This document shows positions 9,028-16,761 of a stretch of DNA of 39,142 nt, in pieces. The DNA is from an uncultured Candidatus Saccharibacteria bacterium (lineage in GTDB: Bacteria > Patescibacteriota > Minisyncoccia > Minisyncoccales > CAZJJV01): assembly GCA_964546415.1 (NCBI GenBank), contig CAZJJV010000001.1:1-39142 (forward strand), read 5' to 3'. The translations under genes were made by a program, and so were the position numbers. The number at the start of each line of letters is the position of its first letter. Positions within the stretch are counted from its first letter, which is position 1. A model generated the notes under the pieces. The model was not told the origin of the DNA. It worked only from the letters and a program-made list of their open reading frames with translations, and did no database searches.

Positions 9028-9054
9028 TTAGCACTCAAACCTCTTGACTGCTAA
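9028..9054 (+). promoter_or_regulatory. CIRCE operator (HrcA binding site)
   Basis: TTAGCACTC-AAACCTCTT-GACTGCTAA against the consensus TTAGCACTC-N9-GAGTGCTAA (one mismatch), directly upstream of hrcA. Confidence 0.85.
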
Positions 9055-9071
9055 TTTTGGTTTGTTAAAAT
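9044..9071 (+). promoter_or_regulatory. putative sigma-70-type promoter of the hrcA operon: -35 TTGACT, 16-nt spacer, extended -10 TGT-TAAAAT
   Basis: TTGACT (9044-9049) overlaps the right CIRCE arm. TGTTAAAAT (9063-9071) ends 5 nt before the ATG at 9077. Confidence 0.4.
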
Positions 9072-9076
9072 ATAAT

Positions 9077-9772
9077 ATGATGACCAAAAGGCAAACTGAA
9101 ATTTTAAAGAAGATAGTGAAAGAACATATTGTCACCGCTCAACCAGTGAGTTCCCAATTATTGGAAGAGAAATACAACTGGGGGATTTCTCCGGCTACCA
9201 TTAGAATTGAAATGCAAAGATTAACTGATCAGGGCTATCTTTATCAGCCCCATACTTCGGCTGGCAGGGTTCCTACTGATAAGGGTTATAGGTTTTTCGT
9301 AGACGAGATAATAAAAAGAAAGGATTCTTTCTTTGAAATTGGAGATTGGATAGAAAAAGAAATTGAAAATGTTTTTGAAACGATCCAACACTTAACTAAA
9401 CGCTTATCTCAATTTTCTAAAACCCTAACCCTTACTTATTTAGAGAAGGAAAGAATAATATGGAAAGAGGGTTGGGAAGAGGTATTAAAAGAACCAGAAT
9501 TTAAAGAAAGAAAGCGTCTTTTCTCTTTTGTGGGACTTTTGGAAGAGTTGGAAGAAAATATAGAAAGGCTGGCTTTTGATTCTGAGATTAATATTTATAT
9601 TGGGAGAGAAAGCAATCTGAGGAATTGTCAAGATTTCGCTATTTTAACCTCAAGGCATAAATTACCAGACCAAAGAGAGGGAATATTTTCTCTTGTGGGG
9701 CCAAAAAGAATGAATTACGACAAAAACATTAAATTAATGAGATCTTTGGCTCGTTTCCTAGAAAAATTATAA
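9077..9772 (+). CDS. hrcA: heat-inducible transcription repressor HrcA (short form, 231 aa)
   Basis: TKRQTEILKKIVKEHIVTAQPVSSQLL...ISPATIRIEMQRLTDQGYLYQPHTSAGRVPTDKGYRFFVDE (winged HTH) and C-terminal LVGPKRMNYDKNIKLM. I start at the ATG at 9077 because the track's TTG at 9044 lies inside CIRCE and the -35 element. Confidence 0.85.
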   Translation: MMTKRQTEILKKIVKEHIVTAQPVSSQLLEEKYNWGISPATIRIEMQRLTDQGYLYQPHTSAGRVPTDKGYRFFVDEIIKRKDSFFEIGDWIEKEIENVFETIQHLTKRLSQFSKTLTLTYLEKERIIWKEGWEEVLKEPEFKERKRLFSFVGLLEELEENIERLAFDSEINIYIGRESNLRNCQDFAILTSRHKLPDQREGIFSLVGPKRMNYDKNIKLMRSLARFLEKL

Positions 9773-9777
9773 AAATT

Positions 9778-10278
9778 ATGGAAAAAGACAAAAAGGAAGA
9801 ATCTTTCAAAGAAAAAATAAAAGAATTAAAAAAGAAACTTCAAGAATGCGAAAAAGCAAAGCAAGAATATTTAGAGGGTTGGCAACGGGCAAGGGCTGAT
9901 TTCTTAAATTACAAGAAAGAAGAATTAAAGAGAGCAGAGGGTCTAATTGAATTTGCTAAGGAGGGAATGATTTTAAAAATTTTATCTATTTTAGATAATT
10001 TTGAAATTGCTGAAAAGAGTTTGCCCCAAGATTTAAAAGAAGACAAAAACATAAAAGGGCTTCTTTTAATAAAAAACCAATTAAAAGAGTTTTTAAAACA
10101 GAATGGAGTAGAAGAAATTGAGCTGAAAGGGGAAAAATTTGACCCGGCCTTTTGTGAGGTGATTGAAGCGATAGAGGATAAAGAGAAAGAATCTGGGGTG
10201 GTAATTGAAGAAATCCAGAAAGGTTATAAAATTAATGGTAGGGTTTTAAGGCCAGCCAAGGTAAAAGTGGTAAAATAA
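9778..10278 (+). CDS. grpE: nucleotide exchange factor GrpE
   Basis: Coiled-coil N-terminus, RARADFLNYKKE, FDPAFCEVIEAI and GYKINGRVLRPAKVKV are GrpE signatures. Position matches the hrcA-grpE-dnaK context. Confidence 0.9.
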   Translation: MEKDKKEESFKEKIKELKKKLQECEKAKQEYLEGWQRARADFLNYKKEELKRAEGLIEFAKEGMILKILSILDNFEIAEKSLPQDLKEDKNIKGLLLIKNQLKEFLKQNGVEEIELKGEKFDPAFCEVIEAIEDKEKESGVVIEEIQKGYKINGRVLRPAKVKVVK

Positions 10279-10336
10279 AATTTTAAACGAAAAGGTCGTA
10301 GTTTATTTAATTATTTAACCAACAAAAACAAACACT

Positions 10337-10795
10337 ATGGCATTGATTCCCTGGAGACCTTTTTGGGACTTGGAGAAATGGTTTGAGGAAGAATGGCCTG
10401 AGGAATGGTTTGGGGGAGCGGGCTTGTTGAAAAAATTAAGAGAGGGAGTGCCAATGATAAGAACCCCCCGAATGGATATCTATGAGGACAATGGTAATGT
10501 GGTGGCTGAGGTGGAATTGCCGGGAGTAGATCCAAAGAATATTGAGGTAGAGATTAAAGATAACGCCTTAAAGATTGAAGCCAAGACAAAAGAAAAGAAA
10601 GAAGAAAAGGGTAAGGGTTATTATCGAAAAGAGATTTCGGCAGGACTCTTCAAGAGAATTGTTTCATTACCCTCAGAGGTGATAGGAGAGAAGGCTAATG
10701 CTGAGTATGGAGACGGAATTTTAAAAGTGGTTATTCCTAAAGCCAAGCCCAAAAAGGAAAAGAAAAAGCCAATTAAAATAAAGGTTAAAAAATAA
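10337..10795 (+). CDS. Hsp20/alpha-crystallin family small heat-shock protein
   Basis: PRMDIYEDNGNVVAEVELPGVDPKNIEVEIKDNALKIEAK...FKRIVSLPSEV...AEYGDGILKVVIPK is the alpha-crystallin domain pattern. Confidence 0.9.
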   Translation: MALIPWRPFWDLEKWFEEEWPEEWFGGAGLLKKLREGVPMIRTPRMDIYEDNGNVVAEVELPGVDPKNIEVEIKDNALKIEAKTKEKKEEKGKGYYRKEISAGLFKRIVSLPSEVIGEKANAEYGDGILKVVIPKAKPKKEKKKPIKIKVKK

Positions 10796-10802
10796 AATAA
10801 TA

Positions 10803-10826
10803 ATTTGGCCATTTGGCTATTTGGTG
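10803..10826 (+). repeat. three tandem 8-bp units ATTTGGCC / ATTTGGCT / ATTTGGTG upstream of dnaK
   Basis: Read directly. An inverted copy CCAAAT lies at 10850-10855 and a further direct copy at 10860-10865. The 9-mer GCCATTTGG occurs at 10808-10816 and 10857-10865. Confidence 0.5.
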
Positions 10827-10877
10827 GATTGACGATTTCAGGGTCAGGACCAAATTGCCATTTGGTCAATTAATGAA

Positions 10878-12782
10878 ATGGCAAAGGTATTAGGTATTGA
10901 TTTGGGAACCTCTATTTCAAAAATGGCCGCCATTTTACATGGAGAGCCGAAGTGTTTGGAATCCAGAGAGGGTTCGATTTTGATTCCCTCAATGGTGGCT
11001 ATTTCAAAATCAGGCGAAAGATTGATTGGAGATTTGGCTAAGAGACAGGCTATTACCAATCCCCAAAATACCATTTTTGCTGTAAAAAGGTTTATTGGTA
11101 GAAGATGGTCTGACCCCGAGGTTCAAAAAGAACTAAAAAGGTTGCCCTACGAAACCAGAGAAGGAAAAGAGGGCCGGGTTGAAATTAAAATGGGAGAGAA
11201 GTGGTACACCCCAATTGAGATTTCGGCTATGATTTTGCAGAAAATAAAATTAGACGCCGAAGAAAAACTGGGGGAAAAGGTTGAAGGAGCGGTTATTACT
11301 TGTCCGGCTAATTTCGATGATTCTCAGAGGAGAGCCACCAAGGCGGCTGGCGAAATCGCCGGCTTTAAGGTTTATCGGATTATCAACGAACCGACAGCAG
11401 CCGCCTTAGCTTATGGTTTGGGAAAAAAGAAGCAAGAGAAAGTATTGGTTTATGATTTTGGGGGAGGAACATTTGATGTGACCATTTTGGATGTTTCTCC
11501 AGAAGCGGTAGAGGTTTTGGCTACCGGAGGAGAGGCCCATTTAGGAGGAGAGGATTTCGATCAACAAATTCTTAGTTGGGTTGTAGAGAAGTTCAAGAAA
11601 GAGGAAGGGATTGATTTAACAAAAGACTCCATGGCTTTACAAAGAATTAAAGACGCTTCAGAGAAAGCAAAAATTGAATTGTCTAGTGCCTTAGAAACTG
11701 AGATCAACCTTCCTTTTATTTCGGCTGATTCAGCCGGTCCCAAGCATTTACTTTACAAAATAACCCGAGCCCAATTTGAAGAGATGACCCGGGATTTAGT
11801 AGAGAAGTCCATCGAGAGGGTAAAAAAGACATTAGAGGAGGCAAAGTTAAAAAAAGAAGATATTGATGAGATAGTTTTGGTGGGTGGGACCACCTTAATT
11901 CCACAGGTTCGCCAGGCGGTAAAAGATTTTTTTGGCAAAGAACCCAATAAAACCATTCATCCTGAAGAGGTGGTGGCAATGGGAGCCGCTATTCAGGCCG
12001 AAATCCTCAAAGCCAAAGAAGAAGGAAGGGCCCCAGAAGGAGAAATAAAGTCCGTTTTATTGTTAGATGTTTTGCCTTTATCTTTGGGGATAGAAACCCT
12101 AGGAGGAATTAATACTATAATGATTCCCAAAAACACTACTATTCCTACCTCCAAAACCCAGATTTTTTCTACTGCTACTGATAATCAAACCTCAGTAGAA
12201 ATTAATGTATTACAGGGGGAACGACCTATGGCTCAAGATTGCCGCTCTTTAGGGAGATTTATTTTAGAGGGAATTCCACCTGCTCCTCGGGGGGTGCCCC
12301 AGATTGAGGTAACCTTTGATGTAGACACTAATGGGATTTTAACTGTTACTGCCAAAGATAAAGCAACTGGCAAGAGTCAGTCAATCAGGATTGAGGGATC
12401 TTTGGGTCTCTCAAAAGAAGAGATAGAAAGAATGAAAAAAGAGGCTCAAATGTATGCCGAAGAAGACAAAAAGAAGAGGGAATTGGTAGAGGCAAGGAAT
12501 GTGGCAGATAATTTAATTTATACTACCGAAAAAACCCTAAAAGAATCAGGAGACAAGATTTCTGAGGAACTCAAAAAAGAAATAAACGAAAAGTTAGAGG
12601 GGTTGAAAAAAGTAAAAGAAAAAGATAATATAGAAGATATAAAACAAAAAACCGCAGAACTTTCCCAAGTGATTCAAAAGATAGGAACTGAAATGTATAA
12701 AAGAGATCAGGCCCAGGAACCTTCTCAGAAAGAGCCAGAAAAACCAGAAGAACCAGAGGAAGGAGAATATCGAGAAAAATAA
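10878..12782 (+). CDS. dnaK: molecular chaperone DnaK (Hsp70)
   Basis: [58 protein letters not shown] and [12 protein letters not shown], full-length at 634 aa. Confidence 0.97.
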
Positions 12783-12805: not shown

Positions 12806-13885
12806 ATGAAGGACTATTATAAAATTTTAGGCGTTTCTCGAGATGCTTCCCCTGAAGAGATAAAAAGGGCTTATTACAGGTTGGCCCATAAATATCATCC
12901 TGACAAAAGAGGAGGAGACGAAAAAAAATTTAAAGAGATAAATGAGGCCTATCAGGTTTTATCTGATAAAGAAAAGAGGGCTCAGTATGATAAATATGGA
13001 AGGGTTTTTGAGGGAGTAAGAGGTAGGACCGGGGAGGGATTTGATTTTCAATGGAGTTGGCCAAAATCTGGAGGTTTTGATTTTGAGGACCTAGAAGAAA
13101 TCATTGAGGAATTTTTTGGGTTTGGCCCTTTTAGAAAAAGAAAGAGAGATATTAAAAAAGGAAAAGACATTAGTATAGAGATAGAGATTCCCCTGGAAGA
13201 CACCTTAAAAGGAACAGAAAAAAAGATTAAATTAAAAAAATATGTTGTTTGTTCTCGTTGTCAAGGGAGCGGAGCGGAACCAGGGAGTAAAATAAAAGAG
13301 TGTTTTTCATGCCGAGGGACAGGGCAGGTTCAAGAGATCAAACAAACCCTTTTTGGTTCTTTCACCAGATATACAACCTGTCCAGAATGTGGGGGAGAGG
13401 GTTTTAGGCCAGAAAATTTATGTAATGTTTGCCGAGGAGAAGGAAGAATAAAAGGAGAAGAAGAGATTAGCGTTTGGGTTCCCCCTGGGGTGGATACAAA
13501 TCAAATAATAAAAATTGAAGGAAAGGGAGAGGCCGGTAGGAGGGGAGGAAAAAACGGAGATTTATATGTAAGGATAATCGTGAAAAAACATCCTGTTTTT
13601 GAAAGGAAGGGAGATGATCTTTTTGTGTCAGTACCTATTAGTTTTACCCAGGCAGCTTTGGGAGATGAGGTAGAGGTGCCTACCCTGGAAGGGAAAAAGA
13701 TTTTATTAAGGGTACCTCCTGGAACTGAATCTGGAAAGATATTTAAAATTTCTAAAAAAGGAATTCCTCATTTTGCTGGCCGTGGCAGAGGTAATCTTTA
13801 TGTAAATCTGGTTGTGAAAACTCCAAAGAAATTGACCAAAAAACAAAAAGAAATTTTGAAGAAATTAAGAGAAGAAGGATTGTAG
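12806..13885 (+). CDS. dnaJ: co-chaperone DnaJ (type I: J domain plus four CxxCxGxG zinc-finger repeats)
   Basis: [31 protein letters not shown], then [24 protein letters not shown] and CNVCRGEG. Confidence 0.95.
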
Positions 13886-13955
13886 CCCCCATAGCTCAAT
13901 GGTAGAGCAGCGGCCTTTTAAGCCGTTGATCTGGGTTCGATTCCTAGTGGGGGCA
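13885..13955 (+). tRNA. tRNA-Lys (anticodon UUU), 71 nt, CCA not encoded
   Basis: Hand-folded cloverleaf. Acceptor GCCCCCA / TGGGGGC (7 bp perfect). D arm GCTC-AATGGTA-GAGC. Anticodon arm GCGGC-CTTTTAA-GCCGT with TTT at 13917-13919. T arm CTGGG-TTCGATT-CCTAG. Discriminator A13955. Confidence 0.9.
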
Positions 13956-13956
13956 C

Positions 13957-15228
13957 ATGGCAAAATTTTGTTTGGTTACCTTTGGTTGCAAATTAAACCA
14001 AGCAGATTCAGCATTAATAAGAAGGGTTGTCGCCAAGTTCCACAAGGAGGCCTCAGAAAAAGAGGCCGATTTTGTTATTTTGAATACCTGTGGGGTGGTA
14101 GAAAAAACCGAACTAAAGATTATTAAAAAAGCTAAGGAGCTGAAAAGAAAAAGAAAAAAAATAGTTTTAGCCGGTTGTTTGCCATTGATTTCCCCTGAGG
14201 TAGCAAAGAATATAGCAGATGGAATGGTGGGTCCTACTAATATTTTGGATTTACCCAAGGTGATTAAAGGGGTTTTAAGGGGCAAAAAAACAATCTCTCT
14301 GAAGACAAGGTTTTTAGATAAGGCAAGGTTGGGGTGCGTTGCTTTAAATAAAGAAAGCTGTGTAGCGATTATTCCTATTTCAGAAGGTTGCCTGTCTTCT
14401 TGTGCTTATTGCGTGACCAGATTAGCCAGAAAAAAATTAAAGAGTTTTAAAAAGGAAGCAATTTTAGAAAATATAAAATCAGCCATTTCAATGGGAGCCA
14501 AAGAAATCCAGTTAACCTCCCAGGATTTAGCAATCTATGGATTAGATAAAGGAAAAATGGAATTAGGAGATCTTTTGAAAGAAATTGCTAAAATTCAAGG
14601 GAGTTTTAAGGTAAGATTAGGAATGATGAACCCTCAATATGCGAAAAGAATTTTTAACCAGATTTTAAAAATTCTAAAAGATGATAAATTTTATAAATTC
14701 TTACACTTACCTTTCCAATCAGGTTCTAACAATATTTTAAAGGCAATGGGACGAGGTTATAAAAGAGAGGACATTTTAAGATTAGTAAAAGGATTTAGAA
14801 GAAAATTTAAAAGAGGTTTGTTGGCTACTGATGTTATTGTAGGATTTCCAGGAGAGAGCGAAAGAGATTTTAAAGAGACCCTGTCTTTGGTGAAAAAGAT
14901 AAAACCCGACATTCTCCATATTTTCAAGTTTTCTAAAAGAAAAGGATCTCTCTGCGATCATTTAAAAGATTTTCCAGATAGGATTAAAAAAGAGAGATCT
15001 AAAATATTAACAAGGGTATGGAAAGAAATTGCCAAAGAGCAGAGCAGAAAATACTTGGGAAAAACCTTGAAGGTTTTGATTGTTGAGAAAAGAGGAAATA
15101 GTTTTTTGGCTAGGCCAGATTCTTACAAGGCGGTAATTTTAAAAGAGGGCAAGGTAGGGGAGTGGCAAAGAGTGAAGATTATAAAAACCAAACCAAATTA
15201 TTTGGTTGGTAAAGCCCTAAAAAATTAA
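13957..15228 (+). CDS. MiaB/MtaB/RimO-family radical-SAM methylthiotransferase, probably tRNA t6A37 methylthiotransferase (MtaB-like)
   Basis: N-terminal UPF0004-type TFGCKLNQADS and ILNTCGV. Radical-SAM CLSSCAYC (CxxxCxxC). C-terminal TRAM-like GKTLKVLIVEK...VKIIKTKPNYLVGKAL. Subfamily is inferred from context (adjacent tRNA-Lys UUU). Confidence 0.8.
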   Translation: MAKFCLVTFGCKLNQADSALIRRVVAKFHKEASEKEADFVILNTCGVVEKTELKIIKKAKELKRKRKKIVLAGCLPLISPEVAKNIADGMVGPTNILDLPKVIKGVLRGKKTISLKTRFLDKARLGCVALNKESCVAIIPISEGCLSSCAYCVTRLARKKLKSFKKEAILENIKSAISMGAKEIQLTSQDLAIYGLDKGKMELGDLLKEIAKIQGSFKVRLGMMNPQYAKRIFNQILKILKDDKFYKFLHLPFQSGSNNILKAMGRGYKREDILRLVKGFRRKFKRGLLATDVIVGFPGESERDFKETLSLVKKIKPDILHIFKFSKRKGSLCDHLKDFPDRIKKERSKILTRVWKEIAKEQSRKYLGKTLKVLIVEKRGNSFLARPDSYKAVILKEGKVGEWQRVKIIKTKPNYLVGKALKN

Positions 15229-15260
15229 ATTATTTCTCAGTTTTGTTAGATTTTTTCATT

Positions 15261-15289
15261 TTGACCGACTCTAAGAATTAAGTTAAAAT
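15261..15289 (+). promoter_or_regulatory. putative promoter of lysS: -35 TTGACC, 17-nt spacer, -10 TAAAAT
   Basis: TTGACC at 15261-15266 and TAAAAT at 15284-15289, which ends 8 nt before the ATG at 15298 (leaderless or near-leaderless). Confidence 0.35.
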
Positions 15290-15297
15290 AAAAAAAG

Positions 15298-16761
15298 ATG
15301 GCTACTATTGAAGAAATCAAAAAGGTAAGATTAAAAAAATTAGAGGCCTTAAAGAGGGCTCAAATTCTTCCTTATCCTGGAAAAACCAAAAGGACCCACA
15401 CAATAAAAGAAGCTTTGAAAAACTTTACTAAACTTTCTAGATCAAAAAAAGAAATAGTGCTAGCGGGTAGAATAAGATCTTTAAGAATCCATGGCGGAGC
15501 CAGTTTTTTTGATATTGAAGACGGAACCGGGAAAATCCAGGCTTTTTTAAGAAAAGATATGGTGGGGCCAAAAGCTTATCAGTTTTTTTTGGATCACTTT
15601 GATATTGGGGATTTTGTTGAAACAAGGGGCCTACTTTTTAAAACCAAAAGAGGAGAGAAGACAATTGGGGTGGCAGATTATAAAATGTTGGCTAAATCCC
15701 TTTTACCCTTACCTGAGAAATGGCATGGATTGAAAGACATTGAAGAAAGGTTTAGAAAAAGATATTTAGATTTGCTTTTTAATCCAGAAGTGAAGAGAAA
15801 ATTTGAAATAAGGGCCCAAACCTTAAAAGAAATTAGAAATTTTTTAAATAAAGAAGGATTTTTAGAGGTGGAAACCCCTATTTTGCAGCCTCTTTATGGA
15901 GGAGCAAGGGCGAGGCCTTTTAAAACCCACCTCAACGCCTTAGATATAGACCTATATTTAAGAATTGCCCCTGAACTTTATTTGAAGAGATTATTAGTAG
16001 GAGGGTTTGAAAAGGTGTATGAGATCGGAAAGTGTTTTCGTAATGAAGGAGTTGATCGCCAACACAATCCAGATTTTACTATGTTGGAATTTTATTGGGC
16101 TTATGCAGATTATAAAGATTTGATGAAACTAACAGAAAAAATGTTTGAATATCTGTTAAAGAAAATTTTTAAAAAAACAGAAATAGTTTATGAGGGCAAG
16201 AAAATTAACTTCAGGCCTCCTTGGCAAAGAATTGAATTTGATCAGCTTTTAAGGAAATATGCGGGCATCAACTATGAAGAAATTAACCTCTCTGCCTTAA
16301 AAGAAAAAGCAAAAAAATTGGGTTTGAAGGTAACTAAAAGGGCCACCAAGGTGGAGGTGGCTGATGAGATTGTGAAAAAGGTTTGTCGGCCCAAGATTTA
16401 CCAACCCACCTTTGTCATTCATTATCCAGCAGGTTTTCAAGCCCTAGCCAAGCCCTTAGATAAGAACCCTCAAAAACTGGCTAATTTTCAATTAATTGTG
16501 GCTGGTTTTGAATTAATTAACGCCTTTTCAGAATTGAATGATCCTATAGAGCAAAGGAAGAGATTAAAAGAACAAGAAAAGTTATATGTGGAAGGAATAA
16601 AAGAAGCCCAAAGATTAGATGAGGATTTCTTAGAAGCCCTAGAATATGGAATGCCCCCGGCTGCTGGTTTTGGAATGGGAATTGATAGATTGGTAGCCAT
16701 CTTAACTAATTCTCACAGTTTAAGAGAGGTAATCCTATTTCCAACAATGCGAAAAAAATAA
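15298..16761 (+). CDS. lysS: lysine--tRNA ligase, class II
   Basis: OB-fold N-domain, then FLEVETPILQ, YLRIAPELYLKRLLVGGFEKVYEIGKCFRNEG, NPDFTMLEFYWAY and GFGMGIDRLVAILT. Confidence 0.95.
   Translation: MATIEEIKKVRLKKLEALKRAQILPYPGKTKRTHTIKEALKNFTKLSRSKKEIVLAGRIRSLRIHGGASFFDIEDGTGKIQAFLRKDMVGPKAYQFFLDHFDIGDFVETRGLLFKTKRGEKTIGVADYKMLAKSLLPLPEKWHGLKDIEERFRKRYLDLLFNPEVKRKFEIRAQTLKEIRNFLNKEGFLEVETPILQPLYGGARARPFKTHLNALDIDLYLRIAPELYLKRLLVGGFEKVYEIGKCFRNEGVDRQHNPDFTMLEFYWAYADYKDLMKLTEKMFEYLLKKIFKKTEIVYEGKKINFRPPWQRIEFDQLLRKYAGINYEEINLSALKEKAKKLGLKVTKRATKVEVADEIVKKVCRPKIYQPTFVIHYPAGFQALAKPLDKNPQKLANFQLIVAGFELINAFSELNDPIEQRKRLKEQEKLYVEGIKEAQRLDEDFLEALEYGMPPAAGFGMGIDRLVAILTNSHSLREVILFPTMRKK

Follow-up and report, generated by a model that had tools for sequence, protein, structure and literature searches.

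How is a gene expressed whose start codon lies a single nucleotide behind a tRNA gene, when that tRNA gene itself begins within the stop codon of the gene before it? This question is raised by a lysine tRNA gene, tRNA-Lys(UUU), which stands between dnaJ and the gene of a CDKAL1-like, archaeal/eukaryal-type methylthiotransferase (e-MtaB) that acts on N6-threonylcarbamoyladenosine at tRNA position 37 (t6A37). The stretch that we analysed (the window) comprises 39,142 nt of contig CAZJJV010000001.1 (GCA_964546415.1), forward strand. The genome carrying the window (G000; 574 kb in 65 contigs, 85% complete, about 35% G+C) comes from a tiny vent bacterium with a genome size of roughly 0.6 Mb, and the assembly has 23 tRNAs plus a transfer-messenger RNA (tmRNA). 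It was compared with 150 other genomes of its order, which are mostly of 0.3-1.0 Mb and reach about 1.5 Mb at the largest. Counts for three genomes refer to G000 together with G029 and G030, two complete single-contig relatives picked solely for completeness; the three hold 116 tRNA genes in total.

With moderate confidence, we propose that the tRNA-Lys is co-transcribed with its neighbours and excised by RNase P and by a 3′ endonuclease other than RNase Z, that the released e-MtaB mRNA is translated as a leaderless message, and that the overlap with dnaJ is a tolerated deletion.

Structure of the dnaJ/tRNA-Lys/e-MtaB junction

ARAGORN accepted a tRNA-Lys(UUU), anticodon ttt, at 13885-13956 as the sole tRNA in the window. 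In addition, Rfam RF00005 covered 13885-13955 over all 71 model positions (75.5 bits, with the gathering score at 29; E = 6e-15). Both results bear out the initial annotation, which had placed a tRNA-Lys with zero spacer between dnaJ and the methylthiotransferase gene. The tRNA gene (13885..13955, plus strand) has A37, the discriminator A73 and no encoded CCA, and no other tRNA-Lys was found in the assembly, which is 85% complete. Its anticodon loop reads CUUUUAA; the A37 in this loop is the base that bears t6A or its 2-methylthio derivative (ms2t6A). Meanwhile, the thermodynamic fold of 13865-13995 was not better than that of shuffled sequences (z = -0.62), and its minimum-energy structure was not a cloverleaf. 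This test is uninformative for a tRNA, and we therefore relied on the covariance model.

The finer details of the junction, as first described, can be read directly in the sequence. The acceptor strands GCCCCCA (13885-13891) and TGGGGGC (13948-13954) pair perfectly, and G13885 is both nucleotide 1 of the tRNA and the last base of the dnaJ stop codon TAG (13883-13885). On the other side, a lone base, C74 (13956, plus strand), separates the discriminator A13955 from ATG 13957. Same-strand coding regions abut the tRNA on both sides in this way, with a 1-nt overlap at the 5′ end and 1 nt (C74) at the 3′ end.

Both coding regions appear intact. The dnaJ gene (12806..13885, plus strand; 359 amino acids) matched TIGR02349 with 416.1 bits (cut-off 377.2) over profile positions 1-353 of 354, and the C-terminus of the protein is complete despite the overlap. 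Furthermore, TAG is an ordinary stop codon in G000, where it ends 52 of 368 long open frames. The e-MtaB gene (13957..15228, plus strand) encodes 423 amino acids and matched TIGR01578 with 385.7 bits against a cut-off of 314.7. Its frame is closed upstream of the ATG by an in-frame TAG at 13945-13947, the Pfam domain UPF0004 starts at residue 3, and in an N-terminal alignment eight orthologues, archaeal ones included, share the start methionine, which stands 9 residues ahead of an invariant GC motif. These three features mark ATG 13957 as the true start of e-MtaB.

Recurrence of the N73-C74-ATG junction

The discriminator (N73), a single C and the ATG meet in the same exact order at a second place in G000, between tRNA-Arg(GCG) and recG on contig C53. 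We surveyed recG in 30 families of the order and sought a same-strand tRNA within 400 nt upstream, which was found in 19 of the 30. The recG start lies 0-1 nt past N73 in nine families (eight behind tRNA-Arg(GCG) and one behind tRNA-Leu(UAG)), 2 nt past it in two families and 4 nt in two; the other distances are 7, 12, 40, 59, 106 and 274 nt. The N-terminus of RecG is unchanged with or without an upstream tRNA, and the recG start is therefore not in doubt. In addition, many recG loci have divergent tRNA-Ser genes at a distance of about 75 nt upstream, which in effect turns the tRNA-Arg into the 5′ leader of the transcript. The retention of the 1-nt recG junction over family-level divergence shows that expression from such an arrangement is sufficient for it to persist. 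This persistence calls for an unusual mode of translation start, even if deletion bias produced the pile-up of 1-nt junctions.

To estimate how close genes follow tRNAs in general, we counted same-strand open reading frames (ORFs) of at least 100 amino acids beginning within 200 nt past a tRNA in the three genomes. Such a start was found behind 32 of the 116 tRNAs. Five of these starts lie 1 nt from N73, three lie 2 nt from it, none lies at 0 or 3 nt, and the remainder are spread over 4-153 nt. On the 5′ side, the stop of a same-strand coding sequence (CDS) lies within 10 nt of the tRNA or overlaps it in 27 of the 116, with three exact abutments and seven overlaps. One of these overlaps, ftsH/tRNA-Ile in G000, uses the conserved tRNA nucleotides U8-A9-G10 as a TAG stop, and a second one probably does so too. 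Although tight CDS-tRNA-CDS nesting had been called unusual for bacteria, it is a common feature of the present lineage, as seen from these stops and from the starts within 2 nt of N73 (8 of the 32 downstream starts, or 8 of all 116 tRNAs).

Some further tight junctions were seen. The ftsH frame enters tRNA-Ile(UAU), an uncommon isoacceptor in bacteria, by 10 nt and ends at U8-A9-G10 read as TAG (locus L079, contig C40 of G000, 1-74), and an ORF upstream of tRNA-Thr in G029 has a 10-nt TAG overlap of the same kind. On contig C12 of G000 (locus L046, 1207-1310), an ORF stops 2 nt ahead of tRNA-Leu(CAG), and the RNase J gene begins 15 nt past the discriminator with no Shine-Dalgarno (SD) motif. 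Meanwhile, a 566-amino-acid ORF of G029 begins 2 nt past tRNA-Leu(CAG).

Strain polymorphism at the dnaJ/tRNA-Lys junction

The 5′ side of the tRNA behaves differently. The metagenome contig L034 encodes proteins very close to those of the window (DnaK 99%, DnaJ 97.8% and e-MtaB 98% identical). At its junction, dnaJ ends in TTG TAA, which is followed by a 27-nt spacer and then by the identical tRNA. Compared with L034, the window has an exact 28-bp deletion in which TA and the G1 of the tRNA re-form TAG, and DnaJ still has 359 residues.

Ten strain contigs form two clades that differ by about 2%. Clade A, made up of the window plus six contigs that come from other samples and assemblers, has zero spacer throughout (GGATTGTA|G). 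In clade B, contigs L187 and L034 carry a spacer of 28-29 nt, and contig L186, which differs from L187 by 0.3% in e-MtaB, has zero spacer on a clade-B background (GGCTTGTA|G). Since zero-spacer junctions are thus found in both clades, the indel has either arisen or reverted at least twice, or it has moved via a very short conversion tract; exact deletion that recurs, or gene conversion over a very short tract, is what the pattern suggests. Furthermore, public metagenome assemblies hold both spacer alleles, and the zero-spacer form was matched on contigs from three hydrothermal-vent runs. Independent contigs from several vent samples and assemblers cross 13885 without a gap. One Logan contig that skips 13851-13900 was set aside, as its shorter side of 21 nt was under the reliability limit.

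Across the order, we found 12 junctions at which dnaJ is followed by tRNA-Lys(UUU), with gaps of -1, 3, 3, 6, 11, 15, 18, 27, 28, 28, 34 and 53 nt. The zero spacer of the window is the end of a gap continuum. Both spacer alleles exist in nature; the spacer thus seems to contain nothing essential and to be dispensable, and the sole tRNA-Lys gene would therefore have to be transcribed from upstream. The shared stop-codon base itself stems from a recent, polymorphic deletion and is no conserved design; it appears to be tolerated. When the junction is compared across genomes, then, the 3′ N73-C-ATG part of the original description recurs, and the shared 5′ base turns out to be a strain-level polymorphism.

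Position 74 and the enzymes of tRNA maturation

The base behind the discriminator is almost invariant in this group. In the three genomes, C occupies position 74 in 99 of the 116 tRNA genes, and the full CCA is encoded in only 16, at a background C frequency of 0.11 (binomial P about 4e-77 on the 115 scored genes, 98 of them with C74). Among the genes without CCA, C74 is present in 82 of 99, and the next base is mostly A. The preference for C74 could be caused by contact with RNase P, by the specificity of a 3′ nuclease or by priming of the CCA-adding enzyme.

Several enzymes that could process the tRNA were found in G000. The RNase P RNA lies at C27:2485-2981 (121 bits against a cut-off of 100), and there is one enzyme of the CCA-adding type (PF01743). 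In addition, RNase Y, RNase J, polynucleotide phosphorylase (PNPase) and tmRNA are present. RNase R/II and RNase E/G were not found in this 85%-complete assembly.

Signals for translation and transcription starts

Could the ribosomes of this order start on an mRNA that has no leader? SD-like motifs stand ahead of only 2.5-8% of long ORFs in the three genomes (2.5-5% in G029 and G030). The 16S rRNA gene of G000 breaks off at a contig end (model position 1326), and the anti-SD sequence was read in G029 (C1 about 548306, minus strand) and G030 (C1 about 500428, minus strand). Their 16S tails end in GGAUCAC-UACAUUUU as RNA and lack CCUCC (GGATCAC-TACATTTT as DNA, without CCTCC). This agrees with the loss of the anti-SD motif described in a subgroup of Parcubacteria (PMC9297842). 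The order is probably Parcubacteria-like, with at least two members without an anti-SD.

Meanwhile, hexamers resembling the -10 box cluster in a position ending 7-9 nt before the ATGs of operon heads in G000, G029 and G030. In G000, 40 of 146 operon heads have such a hexamer ending 7-9 nt upstream, against about 4 per position elsewhere. Judged by position, this pile-up is the geometry of leaderless transcripts. The window has further examples, as the initial annotation had remarked of its leaderless-looking starts: the -10-like boxes of hrcA and lysS end 5 and 8 nt before the ATG (9066-9079 and 15284-15300). They belong to the promoter-like sites TTGACT-16-TAAAAT (9044..9071, plus strand), ahead of the hrcA ATG at 9077, and TTGACC-17-TAAAAT (15261..15289, plus strand), ahead of lysS, and both have the leaderless-type geometry.

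The 3′ strand of the acceptor stem (GGGGG or GAGGG) was also considered as an SD site for the downstream gene. This is unlikely, since the strand lies 3-4 nt from the ATG, is locked in a helix, and occurs in a group whose relatives have no anti-SD.

Proposed expression of e-MtaB and competing explanations

From these features we infer co-transcription, the sites of cleavage and leaderless translation. One long transcript would run from the hrcA promoter, under control of the CIRCE operator (controlling inverted repeat of chaperone expression), through grpE, hsp20, dnaK and dnaJ into tRNA-Lys and e-MtaB, and deletion pressure in a genome of about 0.6 Mb may have stripped both spacers. On the 5′ side, the 28-bp deletion would have joined the TA of an old TAA to the G1 of the tRNA, leaving UAG in the precursor and DnaJ unchanged. 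RNase P, cutting before G13885, would then produce a dnaJ mRNA ending in UA. Ribosomes stalled on this end could be freed by tmRNA, which would make the overlap a tolerated feature and not a designed one. At the 3′ end of the tRNA, an endonuclease other than canonical RNase Z would cut at or just after A73/C74, the freed tRNA would be completed by the CCA-adding enzyme, and the e-MtaB mRNA would be left starting with AUG or CAUG. The ribosomes of the order would probably translate this mRNA as leaderless, because they rely little on SD sequences and the promoters have a leaderless-type geometry.

Co-transcription appears to be the only economical reading, because there is no room for a promoter, the spacer of the sister strain looks dispensable, and the gaps between dnaJ and the tRNA measure only 3-6 nt in four other families. 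Indirect support for a leaderless or nearly leaderless downstream mRNA comes from the N73-C74-ATG junction kept at recG in nine families, from the leaderless promoter signature of the order with its little or no SD use, and from the fact that no internal promoter fits in the tRNA.

A stronger version can be formulated, which we put forward much more tentatively. The tRNAs of the order might be true punctuation, with a dedicated endonuclease, not RNase Z, that cuts after the near-universal C74. One cut would then make both the tRNA 3′ end, to which only CA has to be added, and a leaderless mRNA with a 5′ AUG for recG, e-MtaB and about 1-2 further genes per genome, whose translation would depend on tRNA processing. 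The UA end of the zero-spacer dnaJ mRNA might even become UAA by A-tailing, as happens in mitochondria.

It should be noted that several points weigh against excision with release of a leaderless mRNA. A canonical RNase Z was not found in G000, where the sole match to TIGR02651 (18 bits) lies inside RNase J, and none of 41 genomes of the order (G000 and 40 relatives) had an RNase Z above the cut-off. If exonucleases make the tRNA 3′ ends, the downstream mRNA would be consumed rather than released. The e-MtaB junction is tight (1 nt) in the window species only; in G015, G045 and G013, the start lies 6 (CAAAAA), 56 and 59 nt past N73, respectively. The excess of 1-nt junctions could likewise arise from deletion bias alone, acting against a selected C74. 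Furthermore, the runs found to contain the locus are DNA runs (mainly from hydrothermal vents, also from sediment and marine metagenomes), with no RNA run among them, and absences in G000 are provisional in an assembly that is 85% complete.

These points lead to a rival that we take seriously, even though we consider it rather unlikely, namely that the junctions are the product of neutral compaction. The tRNA and the mRNA would be alternative fates of the same precursor: exonucleases such as PNPase, acting after a cut farther downstream, would destroy the e-MtaB copy, and e-MtaB would be translated at a low level from precursors by internal initiation beside the folded tRNA. The failure to find RNase Z, together with the presence of PNPase, RNase Y and RNase J, fits such a scheme, as do the clearly neutral-looking polymorphism of the 5′ overlap and the CDS-to-CDS gaps of G000, which are also minimal (median 9 nt, 92 of 358 overlapping). 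In addition, small amounts of e-MtaB and RecG probably suffice. However, initiation 2 nt past a stable G+C-rich acceptor stem would require the tRNA to unfold, and e-MtaB has no A-rich unstructured leader of the kind that stands before other genes. Moreover, other spacers drift, but the recG junction has stayed at exactly 1 nt between lineages that differ at family level.

It is improbable, in our judgement, that the tRNA and e-MtaB are independent transcription units, with a tRNA promoter in the 3′ end of dnaJ and an e-MtaB promoter inside the tRNA gene that gives a primary leaderless transcript from the ATG. Leaderless-type promoters are common in G000, which speaks for this reading. Nevertheless, the positions 7-14 nt ahead of the ATG read CCTAGTGG, a sequence that belongs to the T stem and the acceptor stem and includes no TANNNT hexamer, and the same holds for the recG junction. 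A promoter for e-MtaB inside the tRNA was rejected on this ground, no -10-like hexamer being found at the required place. A consensus scan gave no plus-strand promoter-like site at 12991-15261, and the tRNA sequence is bound by its fold. Even less weight, close to none, can be given to an assembly artefact or a dead locus, in which the zero spacer would be mis-assembled or the tRNA or e-MtaB would be a pseudogene. The window does come from a metagenome-assembled genome, and a sister strain does have a spacer; but the artefact is refuted by the identical junction in six or more independent contigs, which stem from different samples and were built by different assemblers. Meanwhile, a dead locus is at odds with a 75.5-bit tRNA that is the only tRNA-Lys found, and with an e-MtaB that is full length and over the cut-off of its family.

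Comparison with known systems

The initial annotation had likened this junction to the tRNA punctuation of mitochondria, a model reportedly due to Ojala, Montoya and Attardi. The two resemble each other in that a tRNA is directly flanked by same-strand coding regions. Its excision would set both the 3′ end of the upstream mRNA and a leaderless 5′ end of the downstream mRNA, and the upstream stop codon would be incomplete after cleavage. They differ in that the host here is bacterial, the precursor contains a full UAG stop, and no completion by poly(A) is known here. In addition, RNase Z was not found, and only a minority of genes is punctuated (8 of 116 tRNAs with a start within 2 nt). Thus, the likeness holds for the abutment on both sides and for the presence of the RNase P RNA, but not for the 3′ cut, for which the mitochondrial model requires RNase Z, an enzyme that was not found.

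Mixed operons of tRNA and mRNA occur in Escherichia coli, for instance thrU-tyrU-glyT-thrT-tufB and secG-leuU, from which the tRNAs are released by RNase P and 3′ nucleases. As in those operons, the tRNA would here be co-transcribed with protein genes. However, the E. coli operons keep spacers and ordinary SD leaders, and they have neither a shared stop base nor a start codon abutting a tRNA.

Leaderless mRNAs derived from promoters are described in Actinobacteria, in Deinococcus and for lambda cI, with the AUG at the 5′ end or no more than 1 nt from it and with SD-independent initiation (PMC4633059, PMC4007540, PMC3848588). The operon heads of G000 share the -10-box geometry of these systems. 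Unlike them, the 5′ end of the e-MtaB mRNA would come from RNA processing, leaving a 5′-monophosphate, and not from transcription initiation. A literature search gave no account of tRNA-AUG fusions in bacteria, nor of tRNA processing as a source of leaderless mRNAs, although its coverage was partial and this is not proof of novelty.

If the proposed expression is true, genome reduction would have led, independently of mitochondria, to a bacterial equivalent of their tRNA punctuation. This would also link the loss of the anti-SD, the lack of a detectable RNase Z, the tRNA genes that encode C74 alone, and the leaderless-type promoters. Annotation is affected as well: at junctions of this kind, starts and stops will be wrongly placed by gene callers that forbid overlap between CDS and tRNA or that require a ribosome-binding site.

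Genes around the junction

The gene order is hrcA, grpE, hsp20, dnaK, dnaJ, tRNA-Lys(UUU), the methylthiotransferase gene, lysS and murD. The four genes at the head (9077..12782, plus strand), assigned by Pfam to HrcA, GrpE, HSP20 and HSP70, are the upstream genes of the presumed transcription unit. At the head of this heat-shock operon lies a predicted CIRCE operator, the HrcA binding site (9028..9054, plus strand), with one mismatch to TTAGCACTC-N9-GAGTGCTAA, at 0.01 chance matches expected; the promoter-like site of hrcA overlaps it. From 12991 to the tRNA, the consensus scan gave neither a terminator-like nor a plus-strand promoter-like site, the next promoter-like site being that at 15261. 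A terminator-like hairpin inside e-MtaB (14049-14067) was taken as chance, as the region has 5 such sites against 10.4 in shuffled sequences.

The arrangement recalls the heptacistronic dnaK operon of Bacillus subtilis, which we take to be hrcA-grpE-dnaK-dnaJ-yqeT-yqeU-yqeV(mtaB). Both operons are controlled by CIRCE and HrcA and have a t6A37 methylthiotransferase gene downstream of dnaJ, e-MtaB presumably standing at the place of yqeV. Unlike in B. subtilis, the enzyme is of the archaeal/eukaryal type (TIGR01578), and the gene of its predicted substrate tRNA lies between dnaJ and the enzyme gene.

Downstream of e-MtaB, lysS (15298..16761, plus strand) encodes a class II lysyl-tRNA synthetase (TIGR00499, 561.7 bits against a cut-off of 427.6). 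Thus the tRNA-Lys(UUU), the predicted t6A37 methylthiotransferase of that tRNA and the class II synthetase are adjacent in a lysine-decoding cluster at 13885-16761, and the locus is a compact unit of tRNA, predicted modifying enzyme and synthetase joined to a heat-shock operon. The lysS gene was seen downstream of e-MtaB only in the window species. G013, G015, G019 and G045, the four further genomes of the order in which this enzyme type was found, retain the linkage of the tRNA to e-MtaB; in G019, two small ORFs lie between the tRNA and e-MtaB.

The e-MtaB protein has the Pfam domains UPF0004, radical SAM and TRAM. The bacterial MtaB model TIGR01579 gave 274.6 bits, below its cut-off of 357, and the MiaB model was likewise below its cut-off. 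Methylthiotransferases of the archaeal/eukaryal type make ms2t6A37. Beyond its own bacterial group, the closest relatives of e-MtaB are proteins of Archaeoglobales from similar vent habitats (45-46% identity), and this kinship suggests that the gene was acquired from archaea.

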